32,000 nucleotides of DNA from Candidatus Omnitrophota bacterium (lineage in GTDB: Bacteria; Omnitrophota; Gorgyraeia; Duberdicusellales; 4484-171), in the NCBI GenBank assembly GCA_021735045.1, contig JAIPHU010000002.1:1-32000 (forward strand), given 5' to 3'. How positions within the stretch are numbered: position 1 is the first letter of the stretch; the number at the start of each line of letters is the position of its first letter. Of this stretch, positions 5,527 through 29,573 are shown one piece after another. The translations under genes were made by a program, and so were the position numbers. The notes below the pieces were generated by a model. The model saw only the letters and a program-made list of their open reading frames with translations. It was not told the DNA's origin and made no database searches.

Positions 5527-5541
5527 ATTTAAATTTTAATA

Positions 5542-5943: not shown

Positions 5944-5951
5944 ACAAATTC

Positions 5952-6353: not shown

Positions 6354-6360
6354 CCTGCAG

Positions 6361-6396
6361 TTTGGATATTGTTTATTTGGTATTGTTTGTAATTTG
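6361..6396. repeat. Right arm of imperfect inverted repeat bracketing the four-helix-bundle ORF
   Basis: Begins 7 nt after the stop codon. C-free on the + strand. Complements 5952-5987 (see left arm). Confidence 0.6.
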
Positions 6397-6454
6397 TTTA
6401 TTTAATATTGTATATTTCATAGGCAACTAAACTTAATGATAAGGAGGATTTTTT

Positions 6455-8472: not shown

Positions 8473-10437
8473 ATGGCTAAGAAAAAATATAAAAAACAGA
8501 AACGAAAATTAGTTAAGGGATCCAAAACAGAGGACTTAGTTAGGCTTTTTACTGAGTTGATGGATAATATCCCTGATGTAATCTATTTTAAAGATAAAAG
8601 TGGGAAGATCGTTTTGGTAAATAAGGCTTATGCGAGAGGATTAGGTATAACTCCGGATGAAGTCATTGGCAAAACTGATTTTGATATTTTTCCTAAAAGT
8701 AGAGCCCAGATGATGCAGAAAGATGATCTCTGGGTAATAAAAAATAAAAAACCAATTATTGATAAAGTTGAAAGAGCTACTCGGCCTGATGGCCAAGATA
8801 ACTATAGCTCAACTACCAAAATTCCTCGTTTTGATAAAAAAGGATCAGTAATCGGTTTAATTGGAATAACTAGAGATATTACCCGGAGAAGAAGGCTTGA
8901 GCAATTAGAAGAAGATAAGCATCAGATGCAGCGAAAAATTAAATCGTTGAAGGAAATTAATAAGTTAAAGTCGGAGTTTATTTCTATTGTTTCCCATGAG
9001 CTTCGCACGCCTTTAGCTATTATTAATCAAGTAGTTATGGTCTTATTGGATGGATTAGTAGGAAAACTAAACAAAAAACAAAAAGATATTATCATCAAAG
9101 CAAAAAATAGCGTTAATCGGTTAAGCAATATGATAAATAAGTTGTTGGATGTTTCACGGATGCAAAGAGGAGTCCTAGAGCTTCATTATGGGTTGATAGA
9201 TTTAAAAAATTTGCTTAAAGATTTGGGGGGTTCTTTTCAAGAATTTGCTAAGAAAAAAGGAATTATCATTAACTATGATTTTTGTTCAGAAGATATAAAT
9301 TTATTTTGTGATCCAGAAAGGCTTTCACAAATTGTATCTAACTTAATTGATAATGCTATCAAGTTCTGCGAAGAAAAAAGTACAATAACTATTGAGTTGC
9401 GAAAGTTGGCAACAAAGGTCCGTATTGGTGTAATTGATCAAGGGATTGGGATAGATAAAACTAAAATAAATAAAATATTTGATAAGTTTAGTCAAGTTTC
9501 AGGTTTGGCTCGAAGCAACAAGGAAGGGGTGGGGTTAGGGCTTTCTTTAGTAAAGGACTTAGTTAAAAAACATAAAGGTGAAGTTTGGGTTGAGTCTAAG
9601 CTAGGTTCAGGGAGTAAATTTTATTTCACTCTTCCTTTAATTTATAAGTTTCAACTAACCAATAATAAAATAGTAGATATCATAAATAATGCTCTGGCTA
9701 AAGATTTATCTGTTTACTTGATTGAAGTTATAATTATAAAATCTAAAAAAGGGACATCTGGCAGATATACGGTGAAAAAAGATTTTTATAATAAAATTAA
9801 AGAGATAGTTCAAAAAGCTATAATAAACTATAAGGATAAAAATAAAATAGATATCTGCATTGTCGGTGATGACTACAAAAAAAGAACTATTAGCATAGCT
9901 TCAGTTGATAAAACTAATAAAAAATCTATAAAATTTTGCAATTTGTTAAGAGAAAAATTAAAAAAGGTATTAGCTAAAGAAGCAGCAAAGGACGTGTTTA
10001 TTAATTTGGGAACTATGAGTTACCCTAAAGAAAGCAGGCAAGTAGTTCCTCGCCAGTTGGCATCTTCTTTTAGTATTCAGAAAATTTTTACAGGAAAGGA
10101 GATAAGGCGGTCAAAGCGTTTTCGCTATCAGGCGACTTTAAATTTTAATTTATCTGATAAAAAAAGAGGTGCTGCTGAGACTATTGATATCTCTAAGGGC
10201 GGTTTGTGTTTTAAAAATGGCAAAAAACTTAAAAAAGGAGATAAAATAGAGGTGGAGCTTATGGTTTTGAATAAAAAAGAAAGGTTGAACCTTGTGGGTC
10301 AAGTAGCTTGGGTTGCACGAGCTGAAGAAGACAGCAAGGGTTTTGCAAGATATTATAAGATAGGAATTGAGTTTTCTAAACTTAATCAGAAGGAAAGAAA
10401 AATTATTACCCAAGCAATTGAAGATATAGCAAAATAA
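8473..10437 (+). CDS. Cytoplasmic PAS sensor histidine kinase with C-terminal PilZ domain (and a possible degenerate GGDEF-like linker domain)
   Basis: PAS (MDNIPDVIYFKDKSGKIVLVNKAY...GITRDIT). H-box SIVSHELRTPL, N-box NLIDNAIKF, G-box GVGLGLSLV. PilZ motifs RRSKR (R545xxxR549, nt 10105-10119) and DISKGG (D572xSxxG577, nt 10186-10203). Confidence 0.9.
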   Translation: MAKKKYKKQKRKLVKGSKTEDLVRLFTELMDNIPDVIYFKDKSGKIVLVNKAYARGLGITPDEVIGKTDFDIFPKSRAQMMQKDDLWVIKNKKPIIDKVERATRPDGQDNYSSTTKIPRFDKKGSVIGLIGITRDITRRRRLEQLEEDKHQMQRKIKSLKEINKLKSEFISIVSHELRTPLAIINQVVMVLLDGLVGKLNKKQKDIIIKAKNSVNRLSNMINKLLDVSRMQRGVLELHYGLIDLKNLLKDLGGSFQEFAKKKGIIINYDFCSEDINLFCDPERLSQIVSNLIDNAIKFCEEKSTITIELRKLATKVRIGVIDQGIGIDKTKINKIFDKFSQVSGLARSNKEGVGLGLSLVKDLVKKHKGEVWVESKLGSGSKFYFTLPLIYKFQLTNNKIVDIINNALAKDLSVYLIEVIIIKSKKGTSGRYTVKKDFYNKIKEIVQKAIINYKDKNKIDICIVGDDYKKRTISIASVDKTNKKSIKFCNLLREKLKKVLAKEAAKDVFINLGTMSYPKESRQVVPRQLASSFSIQKIFTGKEIRRSKRFRYQATLNFNLSDKKRGAAETIDISKGGLCFKNGKKLKKGDKIEVELMVLNKKERLNLVGQVAWVARAEEDSKGFARYYKIGIEFSKLNQKERKIITQAIEDIAK

Positions 10438-10448
10438 AAAATAGATAT

Positions 10449-10477
10449 TTGAATCTTTTTTGATCTTATAGTATGAT
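10449..10477 (+). promoter_or_regulatory. Candidate promoter (TTGAAT-17 nt-TATGAT) ahead of the A1-B1-REC unit
   Basis: Hexamers and spacing read directly in the 84-nt gap. Low specificity in AT-rich DNA. Confidence 0.3.
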
Positions 10478-10521
10478 AACATATATTGATTCGATAAAAC
10501 GATTAAAGTTGAAAGATAAAA

Positions 10522-10761
10522 ATGATTAGAAAAGATAAATTATTAGTTAAATTAGATAAACTACAAGAGCTAGAAGGTAGGTTGATTCCTTTGTTGGATA
10601 AGCATCTTTCGGCTTCTCTAGACTTTAGTCAGTTGCCAAAAGAGGAAAGGGATAAGACCATGGAATTTTTAAAAAGTAGGGTAAATATACAGAAAAAACA
10701 CACTGAATCGATTAAAAGTATCAAAGAAGAATTAACCGAATCCGAAAAAAATGTTTACTAA
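10522..10761 (+). CDS. Small helical protein A1 (unknown family; paralogue of 18941-19165)
   Basis: 79 aa, charged and helical, no TM or signal. Gap-free alignment to A2 with shared E..(L/S)IP(L/I)..KHL.SA and a second conserved His. Overlaps the next ORF by 11 nt. Confidence 0.6.
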   Translation: MIRKDKLLVKLDKLQELEGRLIPLLDKHLSASLDFSQLPKEERDKTMEFLKSRVNIQKKHTESIKSIKEELTESEKNVY

Positions 10762-10945
10762 AGAAGATTACTTAACTTATTTTGATCAATTAGCAGATAT
10801 TTATAAAGATTCTATTAATCTCTACACTGATTTGCTAAATGGTTTACAAGATAAAGCAATCCGAAATAAGTTACTAGCAGTTGCTTCAGAAAATATGGAA
10901 GCTTTTCGTTTTATAAAAGAAGAAAAGACAAAATTTAATAAATAA
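10751..10945 (+). CDS. Small helical protein B1 (unknown family; paralogue of 19165-19368)
   Basis: 64 aa. Shares M.(T/S)KEDY, Y..L and DK.I(R/K)N with B2. Translationally coupled to A1. Confidence 0.6.
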   Translation: MFTKEDYLTYFDQLADIYKDSINLYTDLLNGLQDKAIRNKLLAVASENMEAFRFIKEEKTKFNK

Positions 10946-10956
10946 AAGGAGAAGTT

Positions 10957-11328
10957 ATGCCTGCCAACAAAAAAATACTTATTGCTGATGATGAACCAGA
11001 TTTTGTGGAACTTATATCCATGCGTCTTGAAGTTAACGGCTATGATGTGGTTTCGGCTAAAGATGGCCAAGAGGCAATTGATAAAACTAAAAGTGAAAAG
11101 CCGGATTTATTGATTTTAGACTTAATGATGCCCAAAGTTGATGGGTTTGAGGTTTGCCGGATGCTAAAGTTTGACGATAATTTTAAGGATTTGCCGATAA
11201 TAGTACTTTCTGCTCTTGATCAGCAACAAGATCGGGAAAAGGCCGTTGAGGCTGGAGCCGATGAATACTTTATCAAACCTTTTGATTTAAGCTTACTTTT
11301 AACTAAGATTCAAGAACTTACTGGATAA
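10957..11328 (+). CDS. Receiver-only response regulator (paralogue of 22302-22664)
   Basis: KKILIADDEPD, PDLLILDLMMPKVDG, IIVLSA, IKPFD. aaggag RBS. No output domain. Confidence 0.9.
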   Translation: MPANKKILIADDEPDFVELISMRLEVNGYDVVSAKDGQEAIDKTKSEKPDLLILDLMMPKVDGFEVCRMLKFDDNFKDLPIIVLSALDQQQDREKAVEAGADEYFIKPFDLSLLLTKIQELTG

Positions 11329-11437: not shown

Positions 11438-13540
11438 ATGGCACGAAGAATCAGTTTAGAAAAAGTACGTAATATTGGAATTATGGCTCATATTGATGCC
11501 GGTAAGACAACACTTACCGAACGCATTCTTTTTTATACCGGGCGGTCGCATAAAATGGGGGAAGTCCATGATGGAGCTGCGGTAATGGATTGGATGAAAC
11601 AAGAGCAAGAAAGAGGTATAACCATAACTTCAGCGGCAACTACTTGTAGTTGGTTGGATCACAGAATAAATATAATCGATACTCCTGGCCACGTTGATTT
11701 TACTGTTGAAGTTGAACGTTCTTTGCGAGTTTTAGATGGATCAATTGCTGTATTTTGTGCTGTAGGTGGGGTGGAACCTCAGGCAGAAAAGGTATGGCAT
11801 CAATCTGATAAATATGAAGTGCCAAAAATCGCTTTTGTAAATAAGATGGATAGGGCTGGAGCAAACTTTTTTGAAGTAGTCAAAGACATTGAAGAAGAGC
11901 TGGGGGCAAATGTTATCCCTTTACAAGTTCCTATTGGGGCTGAAGATAATTTTAGAGGAATAATCGATCTAATGGATATGAAAGCTTATATCTACGACGA
12001 TGAGTCTTTAGGTAAAAACTTTCACATTGAAGATATACCCACAGACTATCAAGATAAAGCTAAAGAGCATCATCATATAATGGTTGAAAAAGCTGTTGAA
12101 CTAGATGATTCTTTAATGGAGAAGTATCTTGAGTCCGAAGATTCTATTTCAAAAGAGGAGCTGGTTAAAGCTATAAGAAGAGGCGTTATAGCCAATAAAA
12201 TTGTTCCGGCAATGTGTGGTTCTGCCTTTAAGAATAAAGGGGTCCAGCGCCTTCTTGATGCGATAACTCTTTATCTTCCTTCTCCTCTGAATTTACCACC
12301 AGCTGAAGGAACAGATCCAAACGATCCTGAGAAAATAATTAAAAGAGAGCCTAAAGATGATGCACCTTTTTCAGCTTTGGCGTTTAAAGTACAAGCTGAT
12401 CCTCATATGGGAAAACTGATTTATTTTAGAGCTTACTCAGGCAAACTTGAGGCAGGCTCATATATTCAAAATGTAACCAAAGGAAAAAAAGAAAGAGTAG
12501 GGAGAATCTTACAGATGCATGCAAATCAACGTGAAAGCCGCCCGGATATATATGCTGGTGATATTGCTGCAGCAGTAGGGCTTGATAATACTACAACAGG
12601 AGATACTTTAACTTCAGTTGAAGATCAAGTGTTGCTTGAGGCTATGGAGTTTCCCGCACCGGTTATGGCAATAAGTATTAAGCCAGAAAGTAATGCCGAT
12701 CAAGATAAAATCTCAAAAGGCTTAAGCCGTTTAGCTGAAGAGGATCCCACTTTTACAGTTAAGACCGATAAAGAAACTGATGAAACTATTATATCAGGAA
12801 TGGGGGAGCTACACCTTGATGTTATTGTTGACCGCCTTAAGCGTGAGTTTGGTGTTTCAGCAAAAGTTGGAGCTCCTAAAGTTGCTTATCGGGAAACTAT
12901 TTTAGGGACTACAAAAGAAGACTATAAGTATGCAAAACAAACTGGTGGCCGCGGCCAATACGGCCATGTTGTCTTAGAGCTATCACCATCTAAGTCTTCG
13001 GAAGGTTTTGATTTTATCAATAGCATTAAAGGAGGGGCAATACCTCGTGAATATATTCCGGCTGTGGAAAAAGGGGTAATCGAGGTAATGAAAAAAGGTA
13101 TTTATGCAGGGTTTCCGGTAGTTGATGTGAAGGTAAACTTAGTAGATGGTTCTTATCATGATGTGGATTCATCAGAATTTGCTTTTAAAATGACCGGAGG
13201 CGAGTGTTTTAAGAAAGCTTTTAATAAGTGTGAGCCAGTTTTATTAGAGCCTTCTATGTCAATTGAGATTACAACTCCGGAAGATTATGTGGGCGGAGTT
13301 GTGGGCGATATCTGTTCGCGTCGCGGTAAAGTTATAAATATAGATTCAAAAGGTAAACAACAACTAATTTCAGCAGAAGCCCCTTTAGCTGAAATGTTTG
13401 GCTATGCTAGTACTTTACGTTCTTTAAGTAGTGGGCGAGCAAATTATTCAATGCATTTTGAAAAATACGTACAAGTTCCTTATCAGATAGCAGAAAACAT
13501 TATCGAAGAAAAGCAAAAAGAAAAGGAAGCAAAAAAATAA
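11438..13540 (+). CDS. fusA: Translation elongation factor G
   Basis: AHIDAGKTT (G1), DTPGHVDF (G3), NKMD (G4), 700 aa with typical EF-G domains II-V (e.g. [16 protein letters not shown]). Confidence 0.95.
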
Positions 13541-13668
13541 TCAATAAATTTTTAATTGCGCTGATTGATTTAACCTCTAAGCAGGAATCTAACTTCTTGC
13601 GCCGTAAAAACTTACCTACTAATTATTTTCTTCTTTTTGTAATTTTTTATTTTTTAAACTAAGATATT

Positions 13669-13677
13669 TGTTATAAT
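13669..13677 (+). promoter_or_regulatory. Extended -10 element (TGtTATAAT) upstream of the EPS/signalling operon
   Basis: Exact TGnTATAAT about 32 nt upstream of ATG 13709, preceded by a long T-rich tract. Confidence 0.35.
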
Positions 13678-13708
13678 AGTTCTAAACTCAAATGTTTTAG
13701 TTTATATA

Positions 13709-16150
13709 ATGAAGAAAATAATCAATCTTGTCTTTAGTTTAATTGTAGTTGCCGGATTAACTTCATTTCTATACCATTACACCCAGCAAGCAGAAATAAA
13801 TTATTATCAGGGGCACCGCTTATTTTTAAATGGTAACTATAGCAAAGCCATTCCTTACTACAAAAACTCTCTTAAAGCTGACCACAGACAATTTAAGGCA
13901 AAAAAAGAGTTAGCTTATTCTTATTTTTGGACTGATAATCCAAAAAAATCTATACCCCTTTTTGAAGATATTTCTAAAAAAAATCCAAAGAATCAAGAAT
14001 TAAAACTATATCTGGCTAAGGCCTATTCTCGAACTGGTAGCCGTAACAAGGCGCTATCGATTATGGGTAAGATTGAGACTAAGGACAAACAACTAGATAT
14101 AAAAATGACCTTAGCAGAAATTTATATCTGGAACAATCAGTTAACTAAAGCCAGAGAGTTGCTTAGAGAAGTTCTAGCTCAGAATCCTAGTAATAATAAG
14201 GCAAAGTTTCTTTTAGCTAAAACTTTTTATTATGATCAAAAAAGTAAAAAAGCTTCAAAAATCTTAGAAAATTTACTAGAGGAAGGAAAAGAACTGCCTG
14301 AGAATGTTAAAGAAAAAGAAGTAAGAGGGCTTTTAGCTCAAACTTATATATCAAGCAATCAGAGTCAAAGGGCGGTTGAGCTTTATCAGCAGTTGGTTGA
14401 TCAGAATCCTAACGATATAGATTTAAAAATGAAATTAGCTGAACTCTTAAGCTGGACTAAAGAACTAGAAAGATCAGAAGATTTGTATCGAAAAATAATT
14501 AAAAAATCCTCCCGGAAAAGAGAAGCCTATCTAGGCCTAGCTAAGGTATTAATTGGGCAAAACCGGTATAAAGAAGCTATCAGTATAATTGATAAGATCG
14601 GAAAAATAAAAGGAACTAAAAATGCAAAGCTGATGTATGGAAAAGCATTGTTATATTCAGGAAAACCAAAATTAGCGCGGGATATTTTTGCTAAACTATT
14701 AAAAGATTATCCTCAGGATTTAGAAACTAAAGAATTATTGGCAGATGCTTACGCCTATAGTAAAAAATATAAAAAAGCGATTTTATTATATCGGAAAATT
14801 CTAGTTAAAACAGATCGTCGCAAAACAAAAAAAGGTTTGGCAGCAGTTTTAAGTTGGAATCAGCAATACCAAAAATCAATTAAATTATACGATCAATTAC
14901 TTGCCGAGGAGTACGATCCAGAGGTTAAACGGCAAAAAGCTCGCGTATTAGGCTGGAGCAAGAACTACCAGAAAGCTTTAGCTGAATATAAGGATTTACT
15001 GGATAAGGAAAAAAGTTCAGCGATTAGGCTGGAGATGGAGGCAAAACAAGCTTATTGGCAGGGAGAAGTTAAGAGTGCAATCAACAATTACCAAAAGCTC
15101 TTGATTGCAGAGCCAGATAACGTTGAAGCTGCCTTTGATCTCAGCCAGCTTTACTCTTATCAGGATATGTGGGAGGAGGCGATCAACCAATATGAAAATA
15201 TCTTAAAAGTACAACCACTGCATTCCAGAGCCAGAGAAGGCTTAGAAAAAGCAAAAATTTTTTATAAAAAAGTTAAAACCAGGCTAGATTATCTATTTTT
15301 TGAAGCTGATTCTCCCGACAGAACTACAGACATTAAAAAACACCAAGTTTTAAAATCAGCATCTTTTTTTATTGCTAAAAATAAAAAAATAAAGATTTCT
15401 TCTGACTTTGCCCAGAGAAGTTTTTCTGATTTTTCTTCGATTTCAGAAAGTAAGACCCAGCTCGAAATTAGCTACCAAAATAATCCCGATTGGAATTTAA
15501 GCGCTTATTACGGTTTAGTTAATTACTACAAGCACCTCGATGAGTTATTCCATCTATTTGGAGCATCTTTTTACCATCGTTTTTTTGATCGGGGGATGTT
15601 TAACTTTAATTACCAACGCCAAAGGCTGACCGACAACAGCCAGTTGATTAGAGATTACGCTTACCGGCATAGTTTTGAAAATAAAATTGATTTTGATTTA
15701 ACGTCGAAACTTAAAATGGGCCTTGACTGTAGATTAGCCTATTATTTTGATGCAAATTTTTTAGTTGAACCAGGAATTGATTTTACCTATTATTTTTCTA
15801 AAGAGCCCAGGCAATTTTATCTTACCTATAGGTACTTTTTTAAAGAATTTAGAAAAGAAAGTTCTGATTATTGGACACCGCGGGGGTTTTCTACCAATAA
15901 ATTAACTTTAGCTTGGCGTCATTACCTAAATTCAGACCAATTATTTTTTGGGGCAGATCAGCTTTATTATCAGCTAAAGTATGAAGTTTCCTTAGATTCA
16001 ACAGACATTTTAATTCATAAATTTATTGGCCAATTTAACTGGGATATTAATAAGAGTCTGAATATCCACTTTGGTGGTTCTTTTGCCGATACAACTTCCA
16101 ATGTTTATCAGGAAAAAAGAATTACGGCGGGGTTAAGCTATTATTTTTAA
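13709..16150 (+). CDS. Outer-membrane exopolysaccharide export protein: N-terminal TPR array plus C-terminal beta-barrel (PgaA/BcsC-like architecture)
   Basis: N-terminal signal or anchor. About 500 aa of TPR-like repeats (A..Y...L...P.N). The last ~290 aa are aromatic-rich with alternating hydrophobicity, ending in GLSYYF (terminal Phe beta-signal). Confidence 0.75.
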   Translation: MKKIINLVFSLIVVAGLTSFLYHYTQQAEINYYQGHRLFLNGNYSKAIPYYKNSLKADHRQFKAKKELAYSYFWTDNPKKSIPLFEDISKKNPKNQELKLYLAKAYSRTGSRNKALSIMGKIETKDKQLDIKMTLAEIYIWNNQLTKARELLREVLAQNPSNNKAKFLLAKTFYYDQKSKKASKILENLLEEGKELPENVKEKEVRGLLAQTYISSNQSQRAVELYQQLVDQNPNDIDLKMKLAELLSWTKELERSEDLYRKIIKKSSRKREAYLGLAKVLIGQNRYKEAISIIDKIGKIKGTKNAKLMYGKALLYSGKPKLARDIFAKLLKDYPQDLETKELLADAYAYSKKYKKAILLYRKILVKTDRRKTKKGLAAVLSWNQQYQKSIKLYDQLLAEEYDPEVKRQKARVLGWSKNYQKALAEYKDLLDKEKSSAIRLEMEAKQAYWQGEVKSAINNYQKLLIAEPDNVEAAFDLSQLYSYQDMWEEAINQYENILKVQPLHSRAREGLEKAKIFYKKVKTRLDYLFFEADSPDRTTDIKKHQVLKSASFFIAKNKKIKISSDFAQRSFSDFSSISESKTQLEISYQNNPDWNLSAYYGLVNYYKHLDELFHLFGASFYHRFFDRGMFNFNYQRQRLTDNSQLIRDYAYRHSFENKIDFDLTSKLKMGLDCRLAYYFDANFLVEPGIDFTYYFSKEPRQFYLTYRYFFKEFRKESSDYWTPRGFSTNKLTLAWRHYLNSDQLFFGADQLYYQLKYEVSLDSTDILIHKFIGQFNWDINKSLNIHFGGSFADTTSNVYQEKRITAGLSYYF

Positions 16151-16162
16151 ATTTAAATTATA

Positions 16163-17995
16163 ATGAATAAGAAAAAATTAATTGATTCTTTGATTTTATT
16201 TACTTTGGTTGCAGTGATGGTCTATGTTGTAACCAGGGCGGTTTTAGTTGGTTATGCTGATTATACTGGCTGGGATCGTTTTAGTGCTATCGGTTTGTTG
16301 CTGGCAGAGTTGTTTGTAGTTTTTCATGGCGTAGGTTATACCTTAAACATCTATCGGGCTTATAGGTATAGTGGTGGAAAAGAAAAGATGCAAGAGGTAG
16401 CAAATAAACCTTTGCCAGAGGAACCATCGGTTGCGATATTTGTTGCTGCGCGCCATGAACCAAAAGAAGTTTTAGAGGAAACTTTTATTAGCATCAAAAA
16501 CTTAAAATATAAAAATAAGAGTATTTATTTCCTTGATGATAGCTCTAAAAGCACTTATAAAAAAGAAGCAGATCAATTAGCAAAAGATCTAGATTTAAAG
16601 ATTTTTCGACGCAAGGATCGCCACGGAGCAAAGGCAGGAATCATTAATGATTGTCTAAAGACAATTAATTCTAAGTATTTAGTTGTTTTTGATGCAGATC
16701 AGAATCCGCTACCTGAGTTTTTAAATCGTGTGGTGGCGTTGATGGAGTCGGACCAAAGACTTGCTTTTGTCCAAACCCCTCAATTTTATAGTAATGTGGA
16801 AGGTTCACAAATTGCCAAAGCGGCGGCTTTTCAGCAAGCGGTATTTTATGAATATATCTGTGAAGGAAAAAGTAGCCAGGATGCGATGTTTTGTTGCGGA
16901 ACAAATATTATTTTTCGCAAAAAAGCCTTAGATCAAGTAGGTGGCCTAGATGAAAGTACAGTTACCGAAGATTTTGCCACTTCTTTTAAATTTCACCAAA
17001 AAGGCTGGAACTCTTTATATTACAATCATGTCTATGCTTTTGGGATGGGGCCGGAAGATTTAGTCGGTTATTTTAAGCAGCAATACCGTTGGGCCAACGG
17101 CACGATCACTGTTTTTAAGAAAGTGTTAAAGAATTTAATATTGCACCCATTTTCTTTAAAAATTAAACAATGGGTAGAGTATTTACTTTCCAGCAGTTAC
17201 TATCTAGTTGGTTTTGCCTTATTTGGCTTGATGCTTTTTCCGATCTTTTATCTTTTATTTGACATCCCTTCTTTCTTTGCTAAGCCACAAGTTTATTTTT
17301 TAGTTTTTTTACCTTATATAACTCTTTCTTTAAGTATATTTTATTTCGTGTTAAAAGAAAGGAACTATACTGCCGGAGATCTTTTTAAAGGCCAGCTGGC
17401 CGGGTTTATAAGCTTTCCGATCTATTTGCAAGCCGCTGTTTCTTCCTTTTTTGGCAGAAAGGCTACTTTCGGGATAACCTCAAAAGCAAAGGGGAAGTTT
17501 GTATCTTATTTTAGATTGTGGCCGCAAATTGTACTTTTATTCCTAAATTATATTGCGATTGTCTGGGGAATGAATCGATTCATCTATCAACGTGATCCGG
17601 CGGTAGTAATTAATGTTTTTTGGGCCTTTTATCATTTTTTGCTGTTAGCTTCTATTTTTTATTTTAACGAAAGGATTATTCCTAAGGCTTTTTTAAAAAA
17701 AATTGCGAAAGAGAGAATAGTTGACTATCAAGTTCTCGAGAGAAATCGCCCCAAACCTGAATTAAACTCTAGGAATTGGCCGGTTTGTTTTGCGACCAAG
17801 TTGCCGGATCGATTAAAAGAGGGAACACTGTTGATGGCAAAAGTAAAAAGCAGAGGAGGAAAGCAGCTAATCTTTGACGCAGAAGTTACCTGGGCGAGTC
17901 CCAGAAAGCGGTTTGGCGGTTATGCTACTGGCTTTGGAGTTGCCAAGGCTTCACCGGAAATTATTACCCAATTAAGGAAATTAGTAAAAAAATGA
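16163..17995 (+). CDS. Processive family-2 glycosyltransferase, cellulose-synthase-like, with degenerate PilZ-like C-terminal domain
   Basis: YFLDDSS, HGAKAGIIND, VVFDADQ (DxD), FVQTPQFY, VTEDFATS (TED), QQYRWANG (QxxRW). 2 N-terminal and about 4 C-terminal TM helices. The C-terminal ~95 aa form a small beta domain resembling the PilZ C-terminal part. Confidence 0.9.
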   Translation: MNKKKLIDSLILFTLVAVMVYVVTRAVLVGYADYTGWDRFSAIGLLLAELFVVFHGVGYTLNIYRAYRYSGGKEKMQEVANKPLPEEPSVAIFVAARHEPKEVLEETFISIKNLKYKNKSIYFLDDSSKSTYKKEADQLAKDLDLKIFRRKDRHGAKAGIINDCLKTINSKYLVVFDADQNPLPEFLNRVVALMESDQRLAFVQTPQFYSNVEGSQIAKAAAFQQAVFYEYICEGKSSQDAMFCCGTNIIFRKKALDQVGGLDESTVTEDFATSFKFHQKGWNSLYYNHVYAFGMGPEDLVGYFKQQYRWANGTITVFKKVLKNLILHPFSLKIKQWVEYLLSSSYYLVGFALFGLMLFPIFYLLFDIPSFFAKPQVYFLVFLPYITLSLSIFYFVLKERNYTAGDLFKGQLAGFISFPIYLQAAVSSFFGRKATFGITSKAKGKFVSYFRLWPQIVLLFLNYIAIVWGMNRFIYQRDPAVVINVFWAFYHFLLLASIFYFNERIIPKAFLKKIAKERIVDYQVLERNRPKPELNSRNWPVCFATKLPDRLKEGTLLMAKVKSRGGKQLIFDAEVTWASPRKRFGGYATGFGVAKASPEIITQLRKLVKK

Positions 17996-18948
17996 TTAAA
18001 AAAATTAAATTAATAGTGATTATTTTTATTATTATTTTGTTTTCTTTTTTTTATTTTGCATACATAAAGCAAATCGGTAAAAACGATTATTGTTTAACGG
18101 GTGCTTTTTTGGCGGACCGGCCAACTAGAAAAGAGATAAAAGAATTTCAAAACAACTATGGTAAAAAGCCATATTTGGTGATGGTTTTTATTGATTGGGA
18201 AAACTTTATTGAAAGAAGTGTCTATCAAGATATTTTTGCTGCCGGTTCAGTTCCTTTTGTTACCTGGGAGCCTTGGCAGGCCGAAACTAAAGAAGGAATT
18301 GATTTTGACCAAATCTTAAGCGGAGAGTATGATCAGTATATAACTAATTTTATAGAGAGGATCACTAAATTTAAAAAGCCAGTTTTTTTACGCTTTGCTC
18401 ATGAAGCTAATGGCAACTGGTATCCTTGGGCCGGGAAAAAAGTGGGAGCTGCGAAGTTAATCGCTGTGCAAAGATATCTCAAGGATTTGGCAGAGAGGCA
18501 AGGCCCCAATCAGATCAAGTGGGTGTTTTCGGTTAATTGGCAAGATATACCGGCAGATAAAGATAATTTTTTTATGAACTACTATCCGGGCAAAGACTAC
18601 GTTGATTATTTTGGCATTGATGGTTATAATTGGGGTGATACGCAAGAATGGAGTCATTGGATGGAATTTGCAGAGATTTTTAAAGATCCCTATCAGATTA
18701 TAACCTCAGAGACAAATAAACCGGTTATAATTTCTGAATTTGGCTCGGCTCAATCCGGTGGAGATAAAGCTGAATGGATAAAAAATACTTTTAAAACTAT
18801 AAAGAAAATGAAAAGAGTTAAAGGTTTTGTTTTGTTTAATCTGGATAAGGAAGCAGCTTGGCGGTTTCGGCCCCAAAGTGCAGCTGGTAAGCAACTCAAA
18901 AAAGGATTAAACAACTCATATTTTAAGGAGAGCCTGAAAGGTGAATAA
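17992..18948 (+). CDS. Membrane-anchored GH26-like glycoside hydrolase
   Basis: N-terminal TM anchor. RFAHEANGNWYPWAG (GH26 acid/base HE.NG.W motif) and IISEFGS (nucleophile Glu). ATGA overlap with the GT2 stop. Confidence 0.7.
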   Translation: MIKKIKLIVIIFIIILFSFFYFAYIKQIGKNDYCLTGAFLADRPTRKEIKEFQNNYGKKPYLVMVFIDWENFIERSVYQDIFAAGSVPFVTWEPWQAETKEGIDFDQILSGEYDQYITNFIERITKFKKPVFLRFAHEANGNWYPWAGKKVGAAKLIAVQRYLKDLAERQGPNQIKWVFSVNWQDIPADKDNFFMNYYPGKDYVDYFGIDGYNWGDTQEWSHWMEFAEIFKDPYQIITSETNKPVIISEFGSAQSGGDKAEWIKNTFKTIKKMKRVKGFVLFNLDKEAAWRFRPQSAAGKQLKKGLNNSYFKESLKGE

Positions 18949-19165
18949 AAAAGAAATTATCAAGCATCTTAAAGAAGCCTTAATTGCAGAAGAAAAATCA
19001 ATTCCAATTTATACTAAGCATCTTGATTCAGCTGTTTTTTGGACTGGGCTAGGAAAAGAAAAAGCTGAGGAAATTAGAGAGATTCTTTCCGAATTAGCGC
19101 GAGGTTCAATGATCCATAAACAAATTATTGAAAATTTGATCAAAAAACTAGAAGGGGAAACTTAA
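18941..19165 (+). CDS. Small helical protein A2 (paralogue of A1)
   Basis: GTG start 10 nt after aaggagag, overlapping the GH26 3' end by 8 nt. 74 aa. E17-x6-Y24 and S56-x2-H59 pattern. Confidence 0.6.
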   Translation: MNKKEIIKHLKEALIAEEKSIPIYTKHLDSAVFWTGLGKEKAEEIREILSELARGSMIHKQIIENLIKKLEGET

Positions 19166-19368
19166 TGCTATCCAAAGAAGACTACCAAGAACATCTTAAT
19201 CAGATGCTGGAGTTAGAAGAAAACATGGAAAAAATGTATGAAAATCTAGCCAAGAGGGTTGAAGATAAAGAAATAAAAAATATTTTTAGAAAAATTAGAG
19301 ATGATGAACAAAAACATGCCGCTTTGGTGCGAAAAATGAAAAAAATGATTACCGAAGAAAGCAATTAA
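19165..19368 (+). CDS. Small helical protein B2 (paralogue of B1); reads like one ferritin/rubrerythrin-type helix pair
   Basis: TAATG stop/start overlap with A2. 67 aa. E18-x6-Y25 and E48-Q-K-H51 (ExxH). Confidence 0.6.
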   Translation: MLSKEDYQEHLNQMLELEENMEKMYENLAKRVEDKEIKNIFRKIRDDEQKHAALVRKMKKMITEESN

Positions 19369-19383
19369 AACTGGTGCAGTAAA

Positions 19384-22287
19384 ATGAGATATAGATTAAG
19401 CATTAAAATTTTATTTTGGTTTTCCTTGTTTATTATAGCAATTGTCGTAGTAAATTTGGCTTCTATTTATCAACTGCAGCGAATGGAAAAGCCCCTAAAA
19501 GAAGAGCTAACCCAAGATATCCAAAACATCAAAGAAAACGAAATATTAGATCATCTAGCTGAATTGATAAGATACTACGATGAAGTTTTAACTCAATCGG
19601 TGCGAAATTATGCTTTTACCGGTAACTTAGAGTGGAAGAAGCGCTATCAAAATATTGAACCAAAATTAGATCAGGCGATCAAAGAAGCAATATCTCGTGG
19701 AAACAGACAGGATAAAAAATTTTTTAAAACAGTTGATCAAGCCAATGAAATTTTGGTCAACCTTGAACATCAAGCTCTAGACTTAGTTGACCAAGGTAAT
19801 CAAGATCAGGCGATTGCGATTTTAGAAAGTAAAAAATATAGAGCCAATAAAAATCAATACTATTCTGGCTTTAGTAGCTACTTACAACGGAGAATGTCTG
19901 AGCACGAAAAAGCGATAACTTTCTCCAGCAAAGATTTAGAAGAAACAATAAGTATATTAAATGAAATTACAAAACAAAATTATTATTTTTTTATCGCTTC
20001 CTTAGCTTTTATCTTGTTGGTCTCATTCTTGTTTGGCTTATTTTTACGTTTTAATGTTTCTCAGCCGTTAACTCGATTGGTAAAATTAATCAAAGCTTCC
20101 GGTAAAAAGGGAGGAAGGAAAGATCTCGTTAACAATAATTTTGGCTTGATGAAACGAAAAGATGAGATTGGAGAGTTGGCAACAACTTACAACCAAATCT
20201 GGCAAGATCTAGAAGAAACTACAGTTTCTCGCGAAAAACTAGTAAAAGAAGTTGAGCTGCATAAGGAATCAAAACAAAAGATTAGCCGCCTAAATATGAT
20301 CTTACGGTCAATCTCAGAAATAAACCAAATGCTAATTAATGTTGATAACCGAAAAAGTTTAATTGAAAAAACCTGTCGAGAGCTGATTAATATTAGGGGT
20401 TATAAAAGTGCCTGGATTGTTCTATTTGATCCTCAAGGTGATTTTTTAGATGCTGCATCTTTCGGGCTAGGCGATAAATTTAATTTATTTAAAAATGATA
20501 TTAAAGTAGGAAGCATCCCCCGCTGTTTAAGTAAAATATGCAAGGAAAAGAAGCTATTTCAAGTTGATGAGCCGCATCAAATGTGCAAAGATTGCTCCTT
20601 ATATAAATACCACCAAGGAGTTAAAACTATTGTTACTTGCCTGCAGCTAGAGGGGGTTGTATATGGGGCCTTAACGGTAGCTATTCCTGAGAGTATTGAA
20701 ATTGATCAGCAAGAGTTATCTTTGCTTAAGGAAATTAGCGGAGATATTTCTTTGGGGCTGCATCACTTAGAAGTTGAAAAAAAACGTCGGTTAACTGAAA
20801 ATAAGTTAAAAGAAAGAGTAAAAGAATTTGGTTGTTTGTCAAATTTGGCAAAAATTGTCGAGGAGCCCGGTATTAGCTTAGAAGGAATATTAGCTAAAAC
20901 AGTGGAGATAATACCTTTTGCCTTGCAATATCCCAGTAGTGCTTCGGCTCGATTAAGGTATGCAGAAAATGAGTATAATACTAAGGGTTTTAAGGAAACC
21001 AATTGTAAATTAAAAGAGGATATTTATGTTGATTTAAAAAAGGTTGGTTTTATCGAAGCTTGTTATTCTTTAAGTATACAGGATGAAAAAGGGGAGTGTC
21101 CTTTTTTAGAAGAAGAAAATACTTTATTTAGATTGATAGCGGAACGGCTAGGCAGAATTATCGAACGAAAAAAAGCCGAAGAGTTTTTAGAAGAAGCTAA
21201 AAATAAATTCAGTAGTTTAGTGGACAATGTTCCCGGGGCTATCTATCGATGTGCCAATGATTCAAAATGGACTATGAATTATATTAGTGATGAAATTGAG
21301 AAAATATCTGGTTATCCGGCTAGTGATTTTATTAAAAATAAGGTAAGAACTTATGAAAGTATAATTTACAAAGAAGACAAGGATTTGGTCAATAAAAAGA
21401 TTCAAGAAGCTATAGAAAAAGGAAAATCTTATAATATTGAATACAGAATAGTTAATAAAAATGATAAGGTTGTATGGGTGGGCGAGAAAGGGAAAGGTGT
21501 ATTCAATAAAGAGGAAAAATTGATTTGGCTTGACGGTGTTATCTTTGATATTACTTTACAGAAGAAAGCAGAAGATAAATTAGAAAAAGCAATAAAAATG
21601 AAGTCAGATTTTTTATCCACAGTTTCTCATGAGTTGCGTACTCCACTGGCTGCAATCAAAGAAGGGATAAATATAGTTTATGACCAATCCGCCGGTAAAA
21701 TTAACAAAGAGCAGAAAGAATTTTTGACGATATCAAAAAGAAATGTAGACCGCTTGGCTCGTTTGATCAACGATGTCTTAGATATCCAGAAATTAGAATC
21801 AGGCAAAGCGGAGTTTAATTTTAAAAAAGAGAATATCAATGACATAATTAAAGAAGTTTTTGAGACGATGCAGCCCCATGCAGCTAAAAAGCAATTACAG
21901 TTAAAATTAAATCTAGATAGTAATATTTCGAAGATAAAAGTTGATCGGGATAAGATCATTCAAGTTATCACCAATTTGATGAGTAATGCAATTAAATTTA
22001 CTGAACAAGGGAAAGTAGTTATAAAAAGCTTGTTAGAGCAAAATGCGATAAAGGTTATAGTCTCTGACACAGGGCCGGGGATAAAAAAGGAAGATTTGTC
22101 AAAATTATTTAAGACATTTCAACAACTTCAAACTGGAAAAGGACGGAAAACCGGGGGGACTGGCCTAGGATTGGCAATCTGTAAGGATATAATCAACAAA
22201 CACCGTGGGAAAATATGGGCAGAGTCAGAACTAGACAAAGGCTCAAAATTTATTTTTTTGCTGCCGATTAAGGAAAGGCGAGCTTAA
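19384..22287 (+). CDS. Large multi-domain sensor histidine kinase (TM - helical extracytoplasmic domain - TM - HAMP - GAF-like x2 - PAS - HisKA - HATPase_c)
   Basis: TM1 aa ~9-27, TM2 aa ~200-222, HAMP-like (PLTRLVKLI...IGELATTYNQI). PAS (VDNVPGAIYRC...GVIFDIT). H-box STVSHELRTPL, N-box NLMSNAIKF, G-boxes DTGPGI and GTGLGLAICK. Confidence 0.9.
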   Translation: MRYRLSIKILFWFSLFIIAIVVVNLASIYQLQRMEKPLKEELTQDIQNIKENEILDHLAELIRYYDEVLTQSVRNYAFTGNLEWKKRYQNIEPKLDQAIKEAISRGNRQDKKFFKTVDQANEILVNLEHQALDLVDQGNQDQAIAILESKKYRANKNQYYSGFSSYLQRRMSEHEKAITFSSKDLEETISILNEITKQNYYFFIASLAFILLVSFLFGLFLRFNVSQPLTRLVKLIKASGKKGGRKDLVNNNFGLMKRKDEIGELATTYNQIWQDLEETTVSREKLVKEVELHKESKQKISRLNMILRSISEINQMLINVDNRKSLIEKTCRELINIRGYKSAWIVLFDPQGDFLDAASFGLGDKFNLFKNDIKVGSIPRCLSKICKEKKLFQVDEPHQMCKDCSLYKYHQGVKTIVTCLQLEGVVYGALTVAIPESIEIDQQELSLLKEISGDISLGLHHLEVEKKRRLTENKLKERVKEFGCLSNLAKIVEEPGISLEGILAKTVEIIPFALQYPSSASARLRYAENEYNTKGFKETNCKLKEDIYVDLKKVGFIEACYSLSIQDEKGECPFLEEENTLFRLIAERLGRIIERKKAEEFLEEAKNKFSSLVDNVPGAIYRCANDSKWTMNYISDEIEKISGYPASDFIKNKVRTYESIIYKEDKDLVNKKIQEAIEKGKSYNIEYRIVNKNDKVVWVGEKGKGVFNKEEKLIWLDGVIFDITLQKKAEDKLEKAIKMKSDFLSTVSHELRTPLAAIKEGINIVYDQSAGKINKEQKEFLTISKRNVDRLARLINDVLDIQKLESGKAEFNFKKENINDIIKEVFETMQPHAAKKQLQLKLNLDSNISKIKVDRDKIIQVITNLMSNAIKFTEQGKVVIKSLLEQNAIKVIVSDTGPGIKKEDLSKLFKTFQQLQTGKGRKTGGTGLGLAICKDIINKHRGKIWAESELDKGSKFIFLLPIKERRA

Positions 22288-22301
22288 AGATAGGGGTAAA
22301 G

Positions 22302-22664
22302 ATGAGTAAAAAGATTTTAATTGTAGATGATGAGCCAGATATTTTAAAAATTGTAATTTTTCGGCTCAAGAATAAGGGCTATCAAACAATCAGTGCAACC
22401 AGTGGAGAAGAAGCGTTTCAGTTGTTAGGAGAGGATAAACCGGACCTTATCATTTTAGATTTACGAATGCCGGGTATCAATGGGGATGAGGTTTGCCGCA
22501 GGATTAAAGCAGACAATAATTTAAATAAGATACCGGTAATCTTGTTAACCGCATCTACCGGCCATGATATTGCAGGATTAGCAAAAGATATAGGAGCGGT
22601 TGATTTCATTCGAAAACCCTTTGATAGTCAACATTTTATCAATAAAATAGAGAATGTTCTCTAA
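22302..22664 (+). CDS. Receiver-only response regulator
   Basis: KKILIVDDEPD, PDLIILDLRMPGINGDE, VILLTAS, IRKPFD. No output domain. Confidence 0.9.
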   Translation: MSKKILIVDDEPDILKIVIFRLKNKGYQTISATSGEEAFQLLGEDKPDLIILDLRMPGINGDEVCRRIKADNNLNKIPVILLTASTGHDIAGLAKDIGAVDFIRKPFDSQHFINKIENVL

Positions 22665-22794: not shown

Positions 22795-23091
22795 ATGGAA
22801 GAAAACAAGAAAATTTACGTTGGCAATCTGAACTATGACACTACAAAAGAAGATTTGCAGAAAGCAATTGAAGAAGCTGGTGCCACACCTACAGATGTAA
22901 CCATTATTAGTGACAAATACACCGGCAGATCAAAGGGGTTCGGCTTTGCAGAGTTTGAGACAGAAGAAGATACTCAGAAAGTGATTGAAGCCTTAGAAGG
23001 AAAAGAATTAGCAGGAAGAAACTTAAAAGTAAACAAAGCTCGGCCAAGAAAACCAAGAAATGATAATTTTGGTTCTGGCCGTCGCTTCTAA
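22795..23091 (+). CDS. Single-RRM RNA-binding protein with Arg/Gly-containing tail
   Basis: RNP-2 IYVGNL and RNP-1 KGFGFAEF motifs. 98 aa. Confidence 0.9.
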   Translation: MEENKKIYVGNLNYDTTKEDLQKAIEEAGATPTDVTIISDKYTGRSKGFGFAEFETEEDTQKVIEALEGKELAGRNLKVNKARPRKPRNDNFGSGRRF

Positions 23092-23140
23092 CAAGTAAAC
23101 AAAAGAAAATAGATCCGATACTCTCGTAAGTGTTTCATAA

Positions 23141-23173
23141 GAGGCAGTAGATTGTTCTACTGCCTCTTTTTTT
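23141..23173 (+). terminator. Rho-independent terminator of the RRM gene
   Basis: gaggcagtag-attgtt-ctactgcctc (10-bp perfect stem) followed by seven T. Confidence 0.85.
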
Positions 23174-24003: not shown

Positions 24004-24041
24004 AATCCTTCGTTTCCGAAAAAAGGAGGCGAAGGATTTTT
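24004..24041 (+). terminator. Rho-independent terminator
   Basis: aatccttcg (24004-24012) pairs with cgaaggatt (24030-24038) and can extend inward (tttcc/ggagg with G-U pairs), followed by a T-run. Confidence 0.7.
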
Positions 24042-24833: not shown

Positions 24834-26276
24834 ATGAAAGAAAAAATAGCTGTTGTTGGTGCTGGAGTTGGGGGGTTGGCGACTGCAGCAAGGCTTAGTT
24901 ACCTCGGTTATGAGGTAGAAGTCTATGAAAAACTTTCTGAGTGTGGGGGAAGGGCTCATCTAATTGAAGATAGAGGGTTTAAGTTTGATACAGGGCCTTC
25001 TTTTGTGCTGATGCCAGATTTTTTTAAAGAAGTTTTTGATTTTTGTAAAAAGGATATATCTGATTATCTTAATCTCGTTACCCTAGATACTAATTATAAA
25101 ATATTTTACCCAACTGGAAAAACTTTAACTATTTACCAAGATAAAGCTAAAACGGAAGCAGAGCTAGAAAAAATAGAACCAGGTGCGAGTTTTGGCTATA
25201 ATCAGTTCCTTCAAGATACAAGAAAAATTTATCAAGCTGTTAAACCTTTACTTTATCATTGCTTCTCTAAGGCTGACCTGTTTAAACCTTCTACTTGGGC
25301 TCTTATCAAAAAGTTAGATATCGGTAAAACTTATTGGCAACTTGCTAATAAATATTTTAAGAGTCCGGAGCTTTGTTATGCTTTTACCTTTGAAGCTATG
25401 TTTATTGGAGTCTCTCCTTTTTCTACACCATCTTTTTATAGTGTTATCACTTATTCGGATCATGTAGAAAAAATACGTCACCCGATTGGAGGAATGTATC
25501 AAATACCTCTAGCTTTAGAAAAAATGGCTAAGGAGTTTGGAGCAAAGTTCCATTACAATTTCAAAGTAGATGAAATAAAAAAAGAAAATAGATTTTTGAT
25601 TATGTCTGGAGAAAAAAAAGAGGCAGCAGACAAAGTTGTGGTTAACACAGATTGGTCATATACTCAGCAAAATATTTTAAAAAGGAAAATACCCAAGTTG
25701 AAATACTCGTGTTCAGTTTATCTGATTTATCTTGGTCTTACTAAAAAGGTAGAAGCGCTAGAACACCATAATTTATTTTTTGCAAAAGACTTACCTAAAA
25801 ATCTTGCTGATATTTTTACCAACTCGAATATACCCGAGGACCCTTCATTTTATATCCATGTACCAACTCGTACTGATTCAAGCCTGGCCCCGGAAGCAAA
25901 AGATATTGCTTATATTTTGGTGCCCGTACCAAATTTAGAAAAAAAGTATTGTTTTAAAGATCATGAACAAAAGGTTAGAGATATAATATTTAATATTGTA
26001 AAAGATAAACTAGGCATAGATCTTAGAGATTTAATTGAAATAGAGCATCGTTTTTATCCAGATGATTTTATCGAAAAATATAATATTTTAAATGCAGCTA
26101 CTTTTGGCCTTTCGCATAATTTTCTTCAAAGCGCATTTTTTAGGCCCACTAATTTTGACTCAAAATATAAGGGACTTTATCATGTGGGGGCAAGTACTCA
26201 ACCAGGCGGAGGGCTTCCTACTGTTTTAGCTAGCTCTAAGATTGTAACTGATTTGATAGCTTCTGGCCGGCCTTAA
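24834..26276 (+). CDS. crtI: Phytoene desaturase family FAD-dependent oxidoreductase
   Basis: N-terminal dinucleotide fold IAVVGAGVGGLATAARL...E.YEK....GGRA. C-terminal GASTQPGGGLPTVLASSKI signature of CrtI-family desaturases. Confidence 0.85.
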   Translation: MKEKIAVVGAGVGGLATAARLSYLGYEVEVYEKLSECGGRAHLIEDRGFKFDTGPSFVLMPDFFKEVFDFCKKDISDYLNLVTLDTNYKIFYPTGKTLTIYQDKAKTEAELEKIEPGASFGYNQFLQDTRKIYQAVKPLLYHCFSKADLFKPSTWALIKKLDIGKTYWQLANKYFKSPELCYAFTFEAMFIGVSPFSTPSFYSVITYSDHVEKIRHPIGGMYQIPLALEKMAKEFGAKFHYNFKVDEIKKENRFLIMSGEKKEAADKVVVNTDWSYTQQNILKRKIPKLKYSCSVYLIYLGLTKKVEALEHHNLFFAKDLPKNLADIFTNSNIPEDPSFYIHVPTRTDSSLAPEAKDIAYILVPVPNLEKKYCFKDHEQKVRDIIFNIVKDKLGIDLRDLIEIEHRFYPDDFIEKYNILNAATFGLSHNFLQSAFFRPTNFDSKYKGLYHVGASTQPGGGLPTVLASSKIVTDLIASGRP

Positions 26277-27972: not shown

Positions 27973-28075
27973 GTCTTTATTTTAAGATTAAGGGCAATAT
28001 ATGCAAGTAAAATAACTATCGTCTTAATCAGCAGAGAAAGGTTGATTTTGTTATTAATTGGTTTAAAATATTTGT

Positions 28076-29569: not shown

Positions 29570-29573
29570 AAAG

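Follow-up and report, generated by a model that had tools for sequence, protein, structure and literature searches.

Small helix-hairpin proteins A and B as core components of a synthase-dependent exopolysaccharide locus in Candidatus Omnitrophota

What ties a pair of small proteins and a two-component system to a polysaccharide secretion machine? The question is raised by a 32,000-nucleotide stretch of a Candidatus Omnitrophota genome (contig JAIPHU010000002.1, positions 1 to 32,000; hereafter the window), in which seven genes run in the same direction on the plus strand. They encode an outer-membrane export protein (OMP, 13709-16150), a glycosyltransferase of family GT2 (16163-17995), a glycoside hydrolase of family GH26 (17992-18948), the small proteins A2 (18941-19165, with a GTG start) and B2 (19165-19368), a sensor histidine kinase (HK2, 19384-22287) and a stand-alone receiver (REC2, 22302-22664). 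The locus is a synthase-dependent exopolysaccharide (EPS) system of the Bcs/Pga type, and A and B are a previously undescribed protein pair. An earlier note on this DNA had taken the array for an EPS machine onto which an "A/B-kinase-receiver module" was fused. The gene orders of related loci lead us to divide it differently: judged by these orders, A and B are native to the polymer machine and are not accessories of the kinase.

The evidence comes from homologous contigs and metagenome loci, which are numbered L001 to L100 in the synteny comparison. About 18 distant lineages share a core block of porin, GT2, hydrolase (GH26, GH8 or none), A and B that contains neither kinase nor receiver. The form with GH26 encodes a small tetratricopeptide repeat (TPR) protein, a TPR-porin, a GT2 of 504-515 residues, GH26, A and B (L005, L007-L012 and L014-L017; L056 from Elusimicrobia; and the metagenome loci L095, L096, L099 and L100). 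The genes for A and B in these short-GT2 lineages come immediately after that for the hydrolase or, failing that, the GT2, which does not fit the fusion of a ready-made module onto an EPS machine. Because A and B are kept where the kinase is missing, we assign them to the core of the EPS system and regard the kinase and receiver as a variable, clade-specific addition. Among GH26-anchored loci from Omnitrophota, Elusimicrobia and their relatives, A and B directly follow the hydrolase in 17 of 18. Among metagenome loci anchored on A, which were scanned with a sub-alignment of the A family, B stands directly after A in 12 of 12 and GH26 directly before A in all 10 that have upstream sequence. The gene 5' of A ends within 15 nucleotides (nt) of the A start in 23 of 25 pairs, and A and B themselves overlap by 11 nt in 17 of the 25, across phyla, and by 1 nt (A2/B2) in the window clade. 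The placement of A2 and B2 inside the polysaccharide operon, also proposed in the earlier note, is thus borne out by cross-lineage gene order. Within the 11-nt overlap, as at 10751-10761 in the window, the same bases encode the conserved tail of A (...DVY or DAF) and the conserved start of B (MFTKEDY or MLSKEDY).

The hydrolase module is exchangeable. In one lineage a GH8 enzyme of the BcsZ family replaces GH26 and is followed by A and B (PF01270, on contigs carrying P0176; ENA ERZ1426844 and ERZ1426851), and in another A and B come directly after GT2 and the hydrolase is absent. In the short-GT2 locus L005, B is followed by a gene for an 873-residue protein with CotH kinase and beta-helix parts (11706-14327).

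How, then, are the kinase and receiver connected to the system? The earlier note would have regarded its proposal as refuted had no relative shared the gene order. In fact L001, L003, L082 and L084 have all seven genes in the same sequence, and L002 has part of it; the GH26 proteins of these five close relatives are 68-86% identical to that of the window. The same relatives also keep an upstream block consisting of a kinase with a PilZ domain (HK-PilZ), a second pair of small proteins (A1 and B1), a second receiver (REC1) and fusA. The system also extends upstream of the seven-gene array to 8473-11328. Elsewhere the link between the EPS genes, A/B, kinase and receiver recurs in permuted form: HK, REC, GH26, A, B in L006; GT2, A1, B1, REC1, GH26, a short kinase and REC2 in L013/L087; GT2, A1, B1, REC1, kinase, REC2, GH26, A2, B2 in L089/L090; and, as a single operon with no kinase, GT2, A1, B1, REC1, GH26, A2 and a B-PilZ fusion in L091. 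Kinase and receiver genes are thus joined to EPS genes in at least four different gene orders, and such recurrence in shuffled arrangements argues well for an action of the two-component genes on this system. Locus L004 has the order HK, hemerythrin, GH26, HK, REC and no A/B; its hemerythrin, a di-iron bundle protein of 136 residues (PF01814, 1829-2239), lies directly upstream of GH26 and between the two kinases. Another kind of di-iron bundle thus stands where A/B would be expected, a hint that comes from a single case. We also note that L013 (JAJCYG010000101.1) is labelled "Actinomycetes bacterium" and holds a complete Omnitrophota-type operon with a layout nearly identical to that of L087; the label is probably a binning or labelling error.

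The domains that accompany A and B suggest what kind of signals could reach the machine. Many of the short-GT2 lineages have a B protein of about 160 residues in which the hairpin is followed by a canonical PilZ domain. PF07238 matches above cutoff in four of the five fusions tested (L008, L011, L015 and L017), and 14 of 15 carry both RxxxR and [DN]x[SA]xxG. Lineages with a long GT2 show a second architecture: the triad A1-B1-REC1 accompanies the long GT2 in five of five lineages and occurs in none of the roughly 18 lineages with a short GT2. The triad directly follows GT2 in L013/L087, L089/L090 and L091, and in the window clade it lies upstream of fusA and behind HK-PilZ.

In the window, HK-PilZ (8473-10437, plus strand) is a cytoplasmic kinase of PAS-HisKA-HATPase layout with a canonical C-terminal PilZ domain (RRSKR and DISKGG motifs; PF07238, 3.3e-13, above cutoff) that is kept in L003, L082 and L084; about 150 residues between HATPase and PilZ have no Pfam match. 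Its domain composition implies control of a phosphorelay by cyclic di-GMP (c-di-GMP). Directly downstream on the same strand are A1 (10522-10761), B1 (10751-10945) and REC1 (10957-11328), a stand-alone receiver in which the DD, D54, S/T and K positions are present. HK2 is a membrane protein with a periplasmic 4HB_MCP-like region followed by HAMP, GAF, PAS, HisKA and HATPase domains and an H-box of sequence SHELRTPL (Pfam: HisKA, 2e-15; HATPase, 2e-28). The length of its sensor part varies from 789 to 1098 residues among close relatives. REC2 is likewise a receiver with no output domain (Pfam Response_reg, 2e-29), and its best NCBIfam match among the single-domain-receiver families is DVU0259/DivK-like, below cutoff. 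The hallmarks of a two-component system, namely an H-box with HisKA and HATPase in the kinase and an aspartate pocket in the receiver, are therefore present, the pocket having been read in REC1. The suggestion in the earlier note that control is post-translational fits the two receivers, neither of which has an output domain. With its periplasmic sensor next to a periplasmic glucanase, HK2 could in principle respond to feedback from the polymer.

What does the machine make? All of the earlier labels for the genes other than A2 and B2 are backed by our analysis, those of GT2, GH26, HK and REC by Pfam. The export protein has 813 residues, with an N-terminal signal or anchor, about 500 residues of TPR and a C-terminal region of about 290 residues that resembles a beta-barrel, an architecture like that of BcsC and PgaA. 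Pfam and NCBIfam match the TPR repeats only, and the C-terminal porin domain has no Pfam family and no sequence match in the PDB. This region is rich in Tyr and Phe with alternating aromatic residues, and it ends in YYF in 19 of 20 orthologues; a conserved YYF terminus is the usual signature of outer-membrane beta-barrels, on which we base the predicted barrel. In other lineages two genes, one for a small TPR protein of about 200 residues and one for a TPR-porin, take the place of this gene, and the small TPR open reading frames map to residues 1-190 of the window protein. By this alignment the export protein of the window clade is a fusion of the two.

The GT2 is a membrane protein of the processive, BcsA-like kind. 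It contains the motifs DDSS, DADQ (DxD), TED and QQYRW, Pfam matches it to GT2 and Cellulose_synt, and BcsA structures are its best solved relatives (5.5e-44 over residues 80-497). Against the cellulose synthase model TIGR03030 it scores 7e-70 and 235.9 bits, far under the cutoff of 699, and for this reason we call it BcsA-like and not an equivalog. It is closer to BcsA than to PgaC (TIGR03030, 7e-70, versus TIGR03937, 9e-28), and an exact look-up of the window protein gave no database record. The long form of the enzyme (610-618 residues) carries a conserved C-terminal extension of about 105 residues, encoded at 17660-17992 in the window, that is absent from the short form (504-515 residues).

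The GH26 protein is anchored in the membrane by an N-terminal hydrophobic helix and matches PF02156 with 41.2 bits against a cutoff of 20.2. Its catalytic residues E138 and E249 are invariant. The family has more than 3000 homologues, and the named ones are almost all from metagenome-assembled genomes of Candidatus Omnitrophota. The family profile aligns with the whole GH26 module of endoglucanase H (CelH) from C. thermocellum at 2.5e-72 and with mannanases at about 1e-12, a difference that rules out a mannanase. The endoglucanase H module is the lichenase Lic26A, and by profile similarity GH26 belongs to the Lic26A (beta-1,3-1,4-glucanase) subfamily. By analogy, its role is probably that of BcsZ in cellulose systems. 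The exchange of GH26 for GH8 favors a beta-glucan product, and judged by the enzyme families the polymer is most likely a beta-glucan, cellulose-like or of mixed linkage.

What are A and B? Both are small, helical and cytoplasmic, with no signal peptide. A2 is a helix-hairpin of 74 residues and B2 one of 67. A2 aligns to positions 2-59 of the Pfam Rubrerythrin model (E=1e-3; 19.9 bits, below the cutoff of 22.8), and B2 aligns to positions 94-136 (28.4 bits, above the same cutoff); A2 thus corresponds to the N-terminal half, and B2 to the C-terminal half, of a single four-helix bundle of the ferritin/rubrerythrin type. The B family profile matches TM1526, symerythrin and EncB, as well as the "Due Ferri" peptides (7e-7), which are designed di-metal helix-loop-helix molecules. 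Similarly, the A family profile matches EncC (0.005), with a conserved Ser of A aligned to the Glu of ExxH. The E/E/H triad of B2 (E18...E48xxH51) is kept in 28 of 28 non-redundant B2-type sequences that are only about 25% identical in pairwise comparison, whereas in B1 copies all three positions are lost; window B1, a paralogue of 64 residues that overlaps A1 by 11 nt, has Y, N and A instead. A proteins keep E17, H27 and H59 in an arrangement E17...S56xxH59, and A1, a paralogue of 79 residues, retains the conserved Glu and both His. A ferritin-like protein in the strict sense is a single-chain four-helix bundle with two E...ExxH half-sites, and here the bundle is split over two genes. We propose that A and B form a heterodimeric bundle with an asymmetric metal site.

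An exhaustive search placed 501 representative clusters in the A family at E <= 1e-3, and this search sets the family size; profile searches of a word-indexed kind gave 58 proteins for A and 32 for B, with no fusions among them. Among the A-family matches listed (150 of the 501 clusters), all are stand-alone proteins of 67-94 residues. Named database records for A and B read "hypothetical" or, in a few cases, "rubrerythrin" or "ferritin family". In full-text searches of a literature library, neither an operon of this type nor a PilZ domain joined to a ferritin-like hairpin turned up. Possible identities of A/B as a toxin-antitoxin pair or a phage-derived insert had no support in any genomic context.

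We propose the following model. The BcsA-like GT2 would polymerize and translocate a beta-glucan, GH26 would trim the polymer in the periplasm, and the TPR and beta-barrel protein would export it. Overlap of their genes would ensure that A and B are made in equal amounts, and the two would join, A supplying the N-terminal half and B the C-terminal half, in a four-helix bundle whose asymmetric metal site takes E18, E48 and H51 from B and E17, H59 and possibly H27 from A. As an adaptor in the cytoplasm, this bundle would set the activity of the synthase and accept interchangeable inputs: a PilZ domain fused to B and binding c-di-GMP in many lineages, and in long-GT2 lineages a stand-alone receiver beside a pair whose metal site has degenerated (A1/B1/REC1). 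In the window clade two routes may exist, one running from c-di-GMP through HK-PilZ to REC1 and A1/B1 and the other, by way of HK2, from a cue in the envelope or periplasm to REC2. The two routes would meet at GT2 and act at the protein level, perhaps by way of the C-terminal extension, and the metal site of B2-type proteins (E...ExxH) may add a redox, oxygen or iron input. That A and B relay signals to the synthase is probable, and towards the adaptor model taken as a whole we lean with moderate confidence. More tentative, and in our view rather doubtful, is a stronger version in which A and B occur only as a heterodimer and form an asymmetric di-metal bundle, the natural equivalent, encoded by two genes, of "Due Ferri", that senses oxygen, redox state or iron and directly gates the synthase, with PilZ or a phosphorylated receiver supplying second inputs.

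Several observations weigh against this model. The SxxH of A in place of the ferritin ExxH leaves the canonical di-iron site incomplete, and window A2 also lacks a nearby Glu that is common in other A proteins (SMIH versus SExH). AlphaFold2 (AF2) folds A2 joined to B2 into four long helices (pLDDT 83, pTM 0.76), but the input was an artificial fusion with no alignment. Foldseek comparison of this model with the PDB gave nothing significant (ferritin-like matches at E of about 0.01 and TM of 0.4), the best geometric match was a designed bundle, and the fold assignment consequently rests on the sequence profiles. The association of A with B, metal binding and contact with the synthase are predictions. 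The short-GT2 lineages L005, L009, L010, L085 and L100 have plain A/B with neither PilZ nor REC, so that in these lineages A/B must work without a fused or adjacent input domain. No BcsB-like open reading frame or Pfam match was present in the window or in about 30 related loci, a search confined to the loci themselves, and the identity of the polymer is read from the enzyme families alone. Finally, the GT2 extension may be a degenerate PilZ domain, a candidate assignment only. It lacks the RxxxR and D/NxSxxG motifs by which the PilZ domain of BcsA is recognized, its PilZ scores are weak (Pfam E=0.13, below cutoff; hhalign against the B-PilZ domains, E=0.075), and its single-sequence AF2 model is beta-rich with a pLDDT of 52, from which Foldseek returned matches that are meaningless (MapZ, a PilZ protein, at rank 35).

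If A and B are not adaptors, what else might they be? The alternative that survives best, though we think it unlikely, makes them passive structural or assembly subunits of the synthase (compare PgaD and BcsQ/BcsR) that sense nothing and use their Glu and His residues for the fold or for a structural metal. In favor of the idea are the strict linkage and gene overlap of A and B with the synthase genes, the plain A/B pairs of several lineages and the incomplete half-site of A. The repeated fusion of B to PilZ and the repeated linkage of A1/B1 to a receiver point away from it, and a motif that is kept throughout the B2-type proteins and lost exactly in the receiver-linked B1 looks functional and not purely structural.

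Less probable again is the idea that A/B serve the sensor kinase, perhaps as a partner that senses a ligand or redox state, and that an A/B-kinase-receiver module was grafted onto the EPS operon. In its favor, both A/B pairs in the window adjoin a kinase and a receiver, and this adjacency is kept in L001, L003, L082 and L084; however, the idea has to contend with the roughly 18 lineages in which A/B directly follow the hydrolase or GT2 in an operon with no kinase or receiver, with L087/L013 and L089, where other genes lie between the kinase and A/B, and with L091, which has no kinase.

We consider it very improbable that A/B constitute a small enzyme related to rubrerythrin or ferritin, with peroxidase or ferroxidase activity, that protects the cell or handles iron, is merely co-transcribed and plays no direct part in polymer synthesis. 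Neither protein has a rubredoxin or another electron-transfer domain, A lacks one bridging Glu, and fusion to PilZ has no rationale for a detoxifying enzyme. Moreover, every sampled A/B pair, across phyla, lies in an EPS operon or, in the window clade, beside displaced regulators (HK-PilZ and REC1). In favor of an enzyme are the sequence similarity of A and B to halves of rubrerythrin, EncFtn and bacterioferritin and the few database names noted above. We thus return to the adaptor model as the reading that we prefer.

Is the array in fact one operon? The seven plus-strand open reading frames lie where the earlier note had placed them, and re-reading of the sequence gave the same spacers (12, -4, -8, -1, 15 and 14 nt). 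The A2 start codon, a GTG at 18941, falls within the final codons of GH26 and is preceded by the plus-strand Shine-Dalgarno site AAGGAGAG at 18925-18932, inside the 3' end of the GH26 gene. The description of the whole array as translationally coupled could apply only to the three junctions at which genes overlap; the spacers of 12-15 nt indicate tight packing and not coupling. An extended -10 promoter-like element read from the sequence, TGTTATAAT, is present at 13669-13677 on the plus strand, 31 nt 5' of the first gene, and in an alignment of the spacer between fusA and the first gene this element and the T-rich stretch preceding it are kept in four of five relatives while the rest of the spacer diverges. 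Sequences resembling sigma-70 promoters are no more frequent within the array than chance predicts (56 versus 46 +/- 8 expected; for example, 18305-18333 and 18602-18630), and they speak neither for nor against internal promoters. No convincing terminator lies within the array, in agreement with the earlier reading: the sole plus-strand match, at 16203-16238, is weak, and the number of matches agrees with that expected from shuffled sequence. The first strong terminators 3' of the array are at 23139-23168 and 24004-24038. No Rfam family, including the c-di-GMP riboswitches, was matched in the window or in the leader. At the other same-strand junctions of the window the spacing is also 15 nt or less in 8 of 19 cases; since the window is compact overall, compactness is weak evidence for an operon, and the real support comes from cross-lineage conservation.

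It is thus hard to credit that the tight packing reflects a compact genome and not an operon and that HK2 and REC2 control something else and are adjacent by accident, even with nearly all genes from 10 to 26276 on the plus strand, many short junctions elsewhere and chance-level promoter matches inside the array, given that at least four different arrangements bring the two-component genes together with the EPS cluster, among lineages with GH26 proteins that are 46-54% identical, and that the array has no internal terminator.

How does the locus compare with known systems? It resembles Bcs in its GT2 with D, DxD, TED and QxxRW motifs, in its BcsC-like exporter of TPR and beta-barrel (the barrel being predicted here), in its operon-encoded periplasmic endo-glucanase, which in one relative is GH8 like BcsZ, and in a predicted c-di-GMP input through PilZ in many lineages. 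It differs in that the locus has no BcsB gene, its hydrolase is of the GH26 lichenase type and not GH8, PilZ is carried by the small protein B or may occur in degenerate form on GT2 and is not a canonical part of the synthase, two ferritin-half core genes have no Bcs counterpart, and a kinase and receiver lie inside the operon. The minimal layout of TPR-porin (PgaA), GT2 (PgaC), periplasmic polymer-processing enzyme and small accessory protein is shared with PgaABCD, in which PgaD is the small accessory protein that mediates allosteric control of the synthase by c-di-GMP. In contrast, PgaD is a membrane protein unrelated to A/B, the present locus has no deacetylase, and its GT2 is nearer to BcsA.

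A further parallel is offered by two bacterial enzymes that make mixed-linkage beta-glucan, RiGT2 (Romboutsia ilealis) and BgsA (Sinorhizobium meliloti), which are BcsA-like proteins of about 600 residues that do not depend on BcsB (PMC10374906, PMC5567048). The PilZ domain of RiGT2 does not bind c-di-GMP and yet is needed for activity (PMC10374906), and by analogy it may parallel the possibly degenerate PilZ-like extension of the long GT2. BgsA works with BgsB and TolC (PMC5567048). Glucans of this type are the substrate of the lichenase subfamily to which the GH26 of our locus belongs. The likeness to RiGT2 and BgsA is one of description and not of sequence, and their operons have no TPR-porin, GH26, A/B or two-component genes.

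On the side of A and B, the E...ExxH half-site and the profile matches of B, together with the match of A to EncC, link the pair to EncFtn, EncB, EncC, symerythrin, rubrerythrin and "Due Ferri"; EncFtn and the "Due Ferri" peptides are further alike in that a complete bundle is built from two separate hairpins, and dimerizing two-helix proteins of the ferritin-like kind, among them the encapsulin ferritins, are the nearest relatives of A/B. Unlike the encapsulin ferritins, A and B would combine two different gene products and not form a homodimer, the half-site of A is altered (SxxH, with the additional conserved His27), and the setting is one of polysaccharide and signalling genes with no encapsulin, rubredoxin or mineralization context. 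Likewise, Alg44-PilZ, YcgR, MapZ and the CheY- and DivK-type receivers are, as here, inputs that lack both enzymatic and DNA-binding output, and control through direct contact between proteins is therefore implied. The difference from stand-alone PilZ proteins and receivers is that PilZ is here fused to a ferritin-half hairpin.

The cellulose, poly-N-acetylglucosamine (PNAG), Pel and alginate systems are the standard cases of post-translational control by c-di-GMP. To these the present locus would add a widespread variant, from an uncultured phylum, in which the c-di-GMP receptor resides on a separate small protein or is replaced by a phosphorelay, in which BcsB is dispensable or replaced, and in which an unannotated family, A, of some 500 sequence clusters is a core component together with its partner B. 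Small proteins annotated as "hypothetical" or "rubrerythrin" are thereby given a functional context. Were the tentative di-metal gating version true, A/B would represent a new class of regulatory subunit of EPS synthases, and the Omnitrophota system a distinct type of synthase-dependent secretion. The observations also bear on the control of surface glucan in the very small, possibly host-attached cells of Omnitrophota, and they raise the hypotheses that the extension of the long GT2 pairs with A1-B1-REC1, that B-PilZ binds c-di-GMP and that A/B binds metal.

Finally, we note the genes that surround the array. The fusA gene (elongation factor G, 11438-13540) splits what is one operon in other lineages, leaving A1-B1-REC1 upstream and the seven-gene array downstream, and this insertion is kept in L003, L082 and L084. 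Because the spacer separating fusA from the TPR gene has no terminator-like site, transcription could read through from fusA. Downstream of the array in all close relatives lies a gene for a 98-residue RNA-binding protein with an RRM domain (22795-23091), which has a 130-nt leader containing TTTACA-16-TACAAT and a purine-rich stretch and is followed by the strong terminator at 23139-23168, an intrinsic-terminator-like plus-strand hairpin with a 13-bp stem and TTTTT. This gene probably has its own promoter, and read-through from the array could also contribute. A run of small genes at 5002-7006, 5' of the regulatory block, encodes a macro domain protein (5002-5526), a DPBB protein resembling lytic transglycosylases (5542-5943), a 23S rRNA intervening-sequence protein (5988-6353) and an NYN ribonuclease (6455-7006). 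At the other end of the window, a carotenoid/isoprenoid cluster (24834-30617) comprises an amine-oxidase-type desaturase (24834-26276), LytB (26273-27112, minus strand), a phytoene/squalene synthase (27109-27972, minus strand), two lycopene-cyclase halves (28076-28695) and a polyprenyl synthetase (29574-30617, minus strand).

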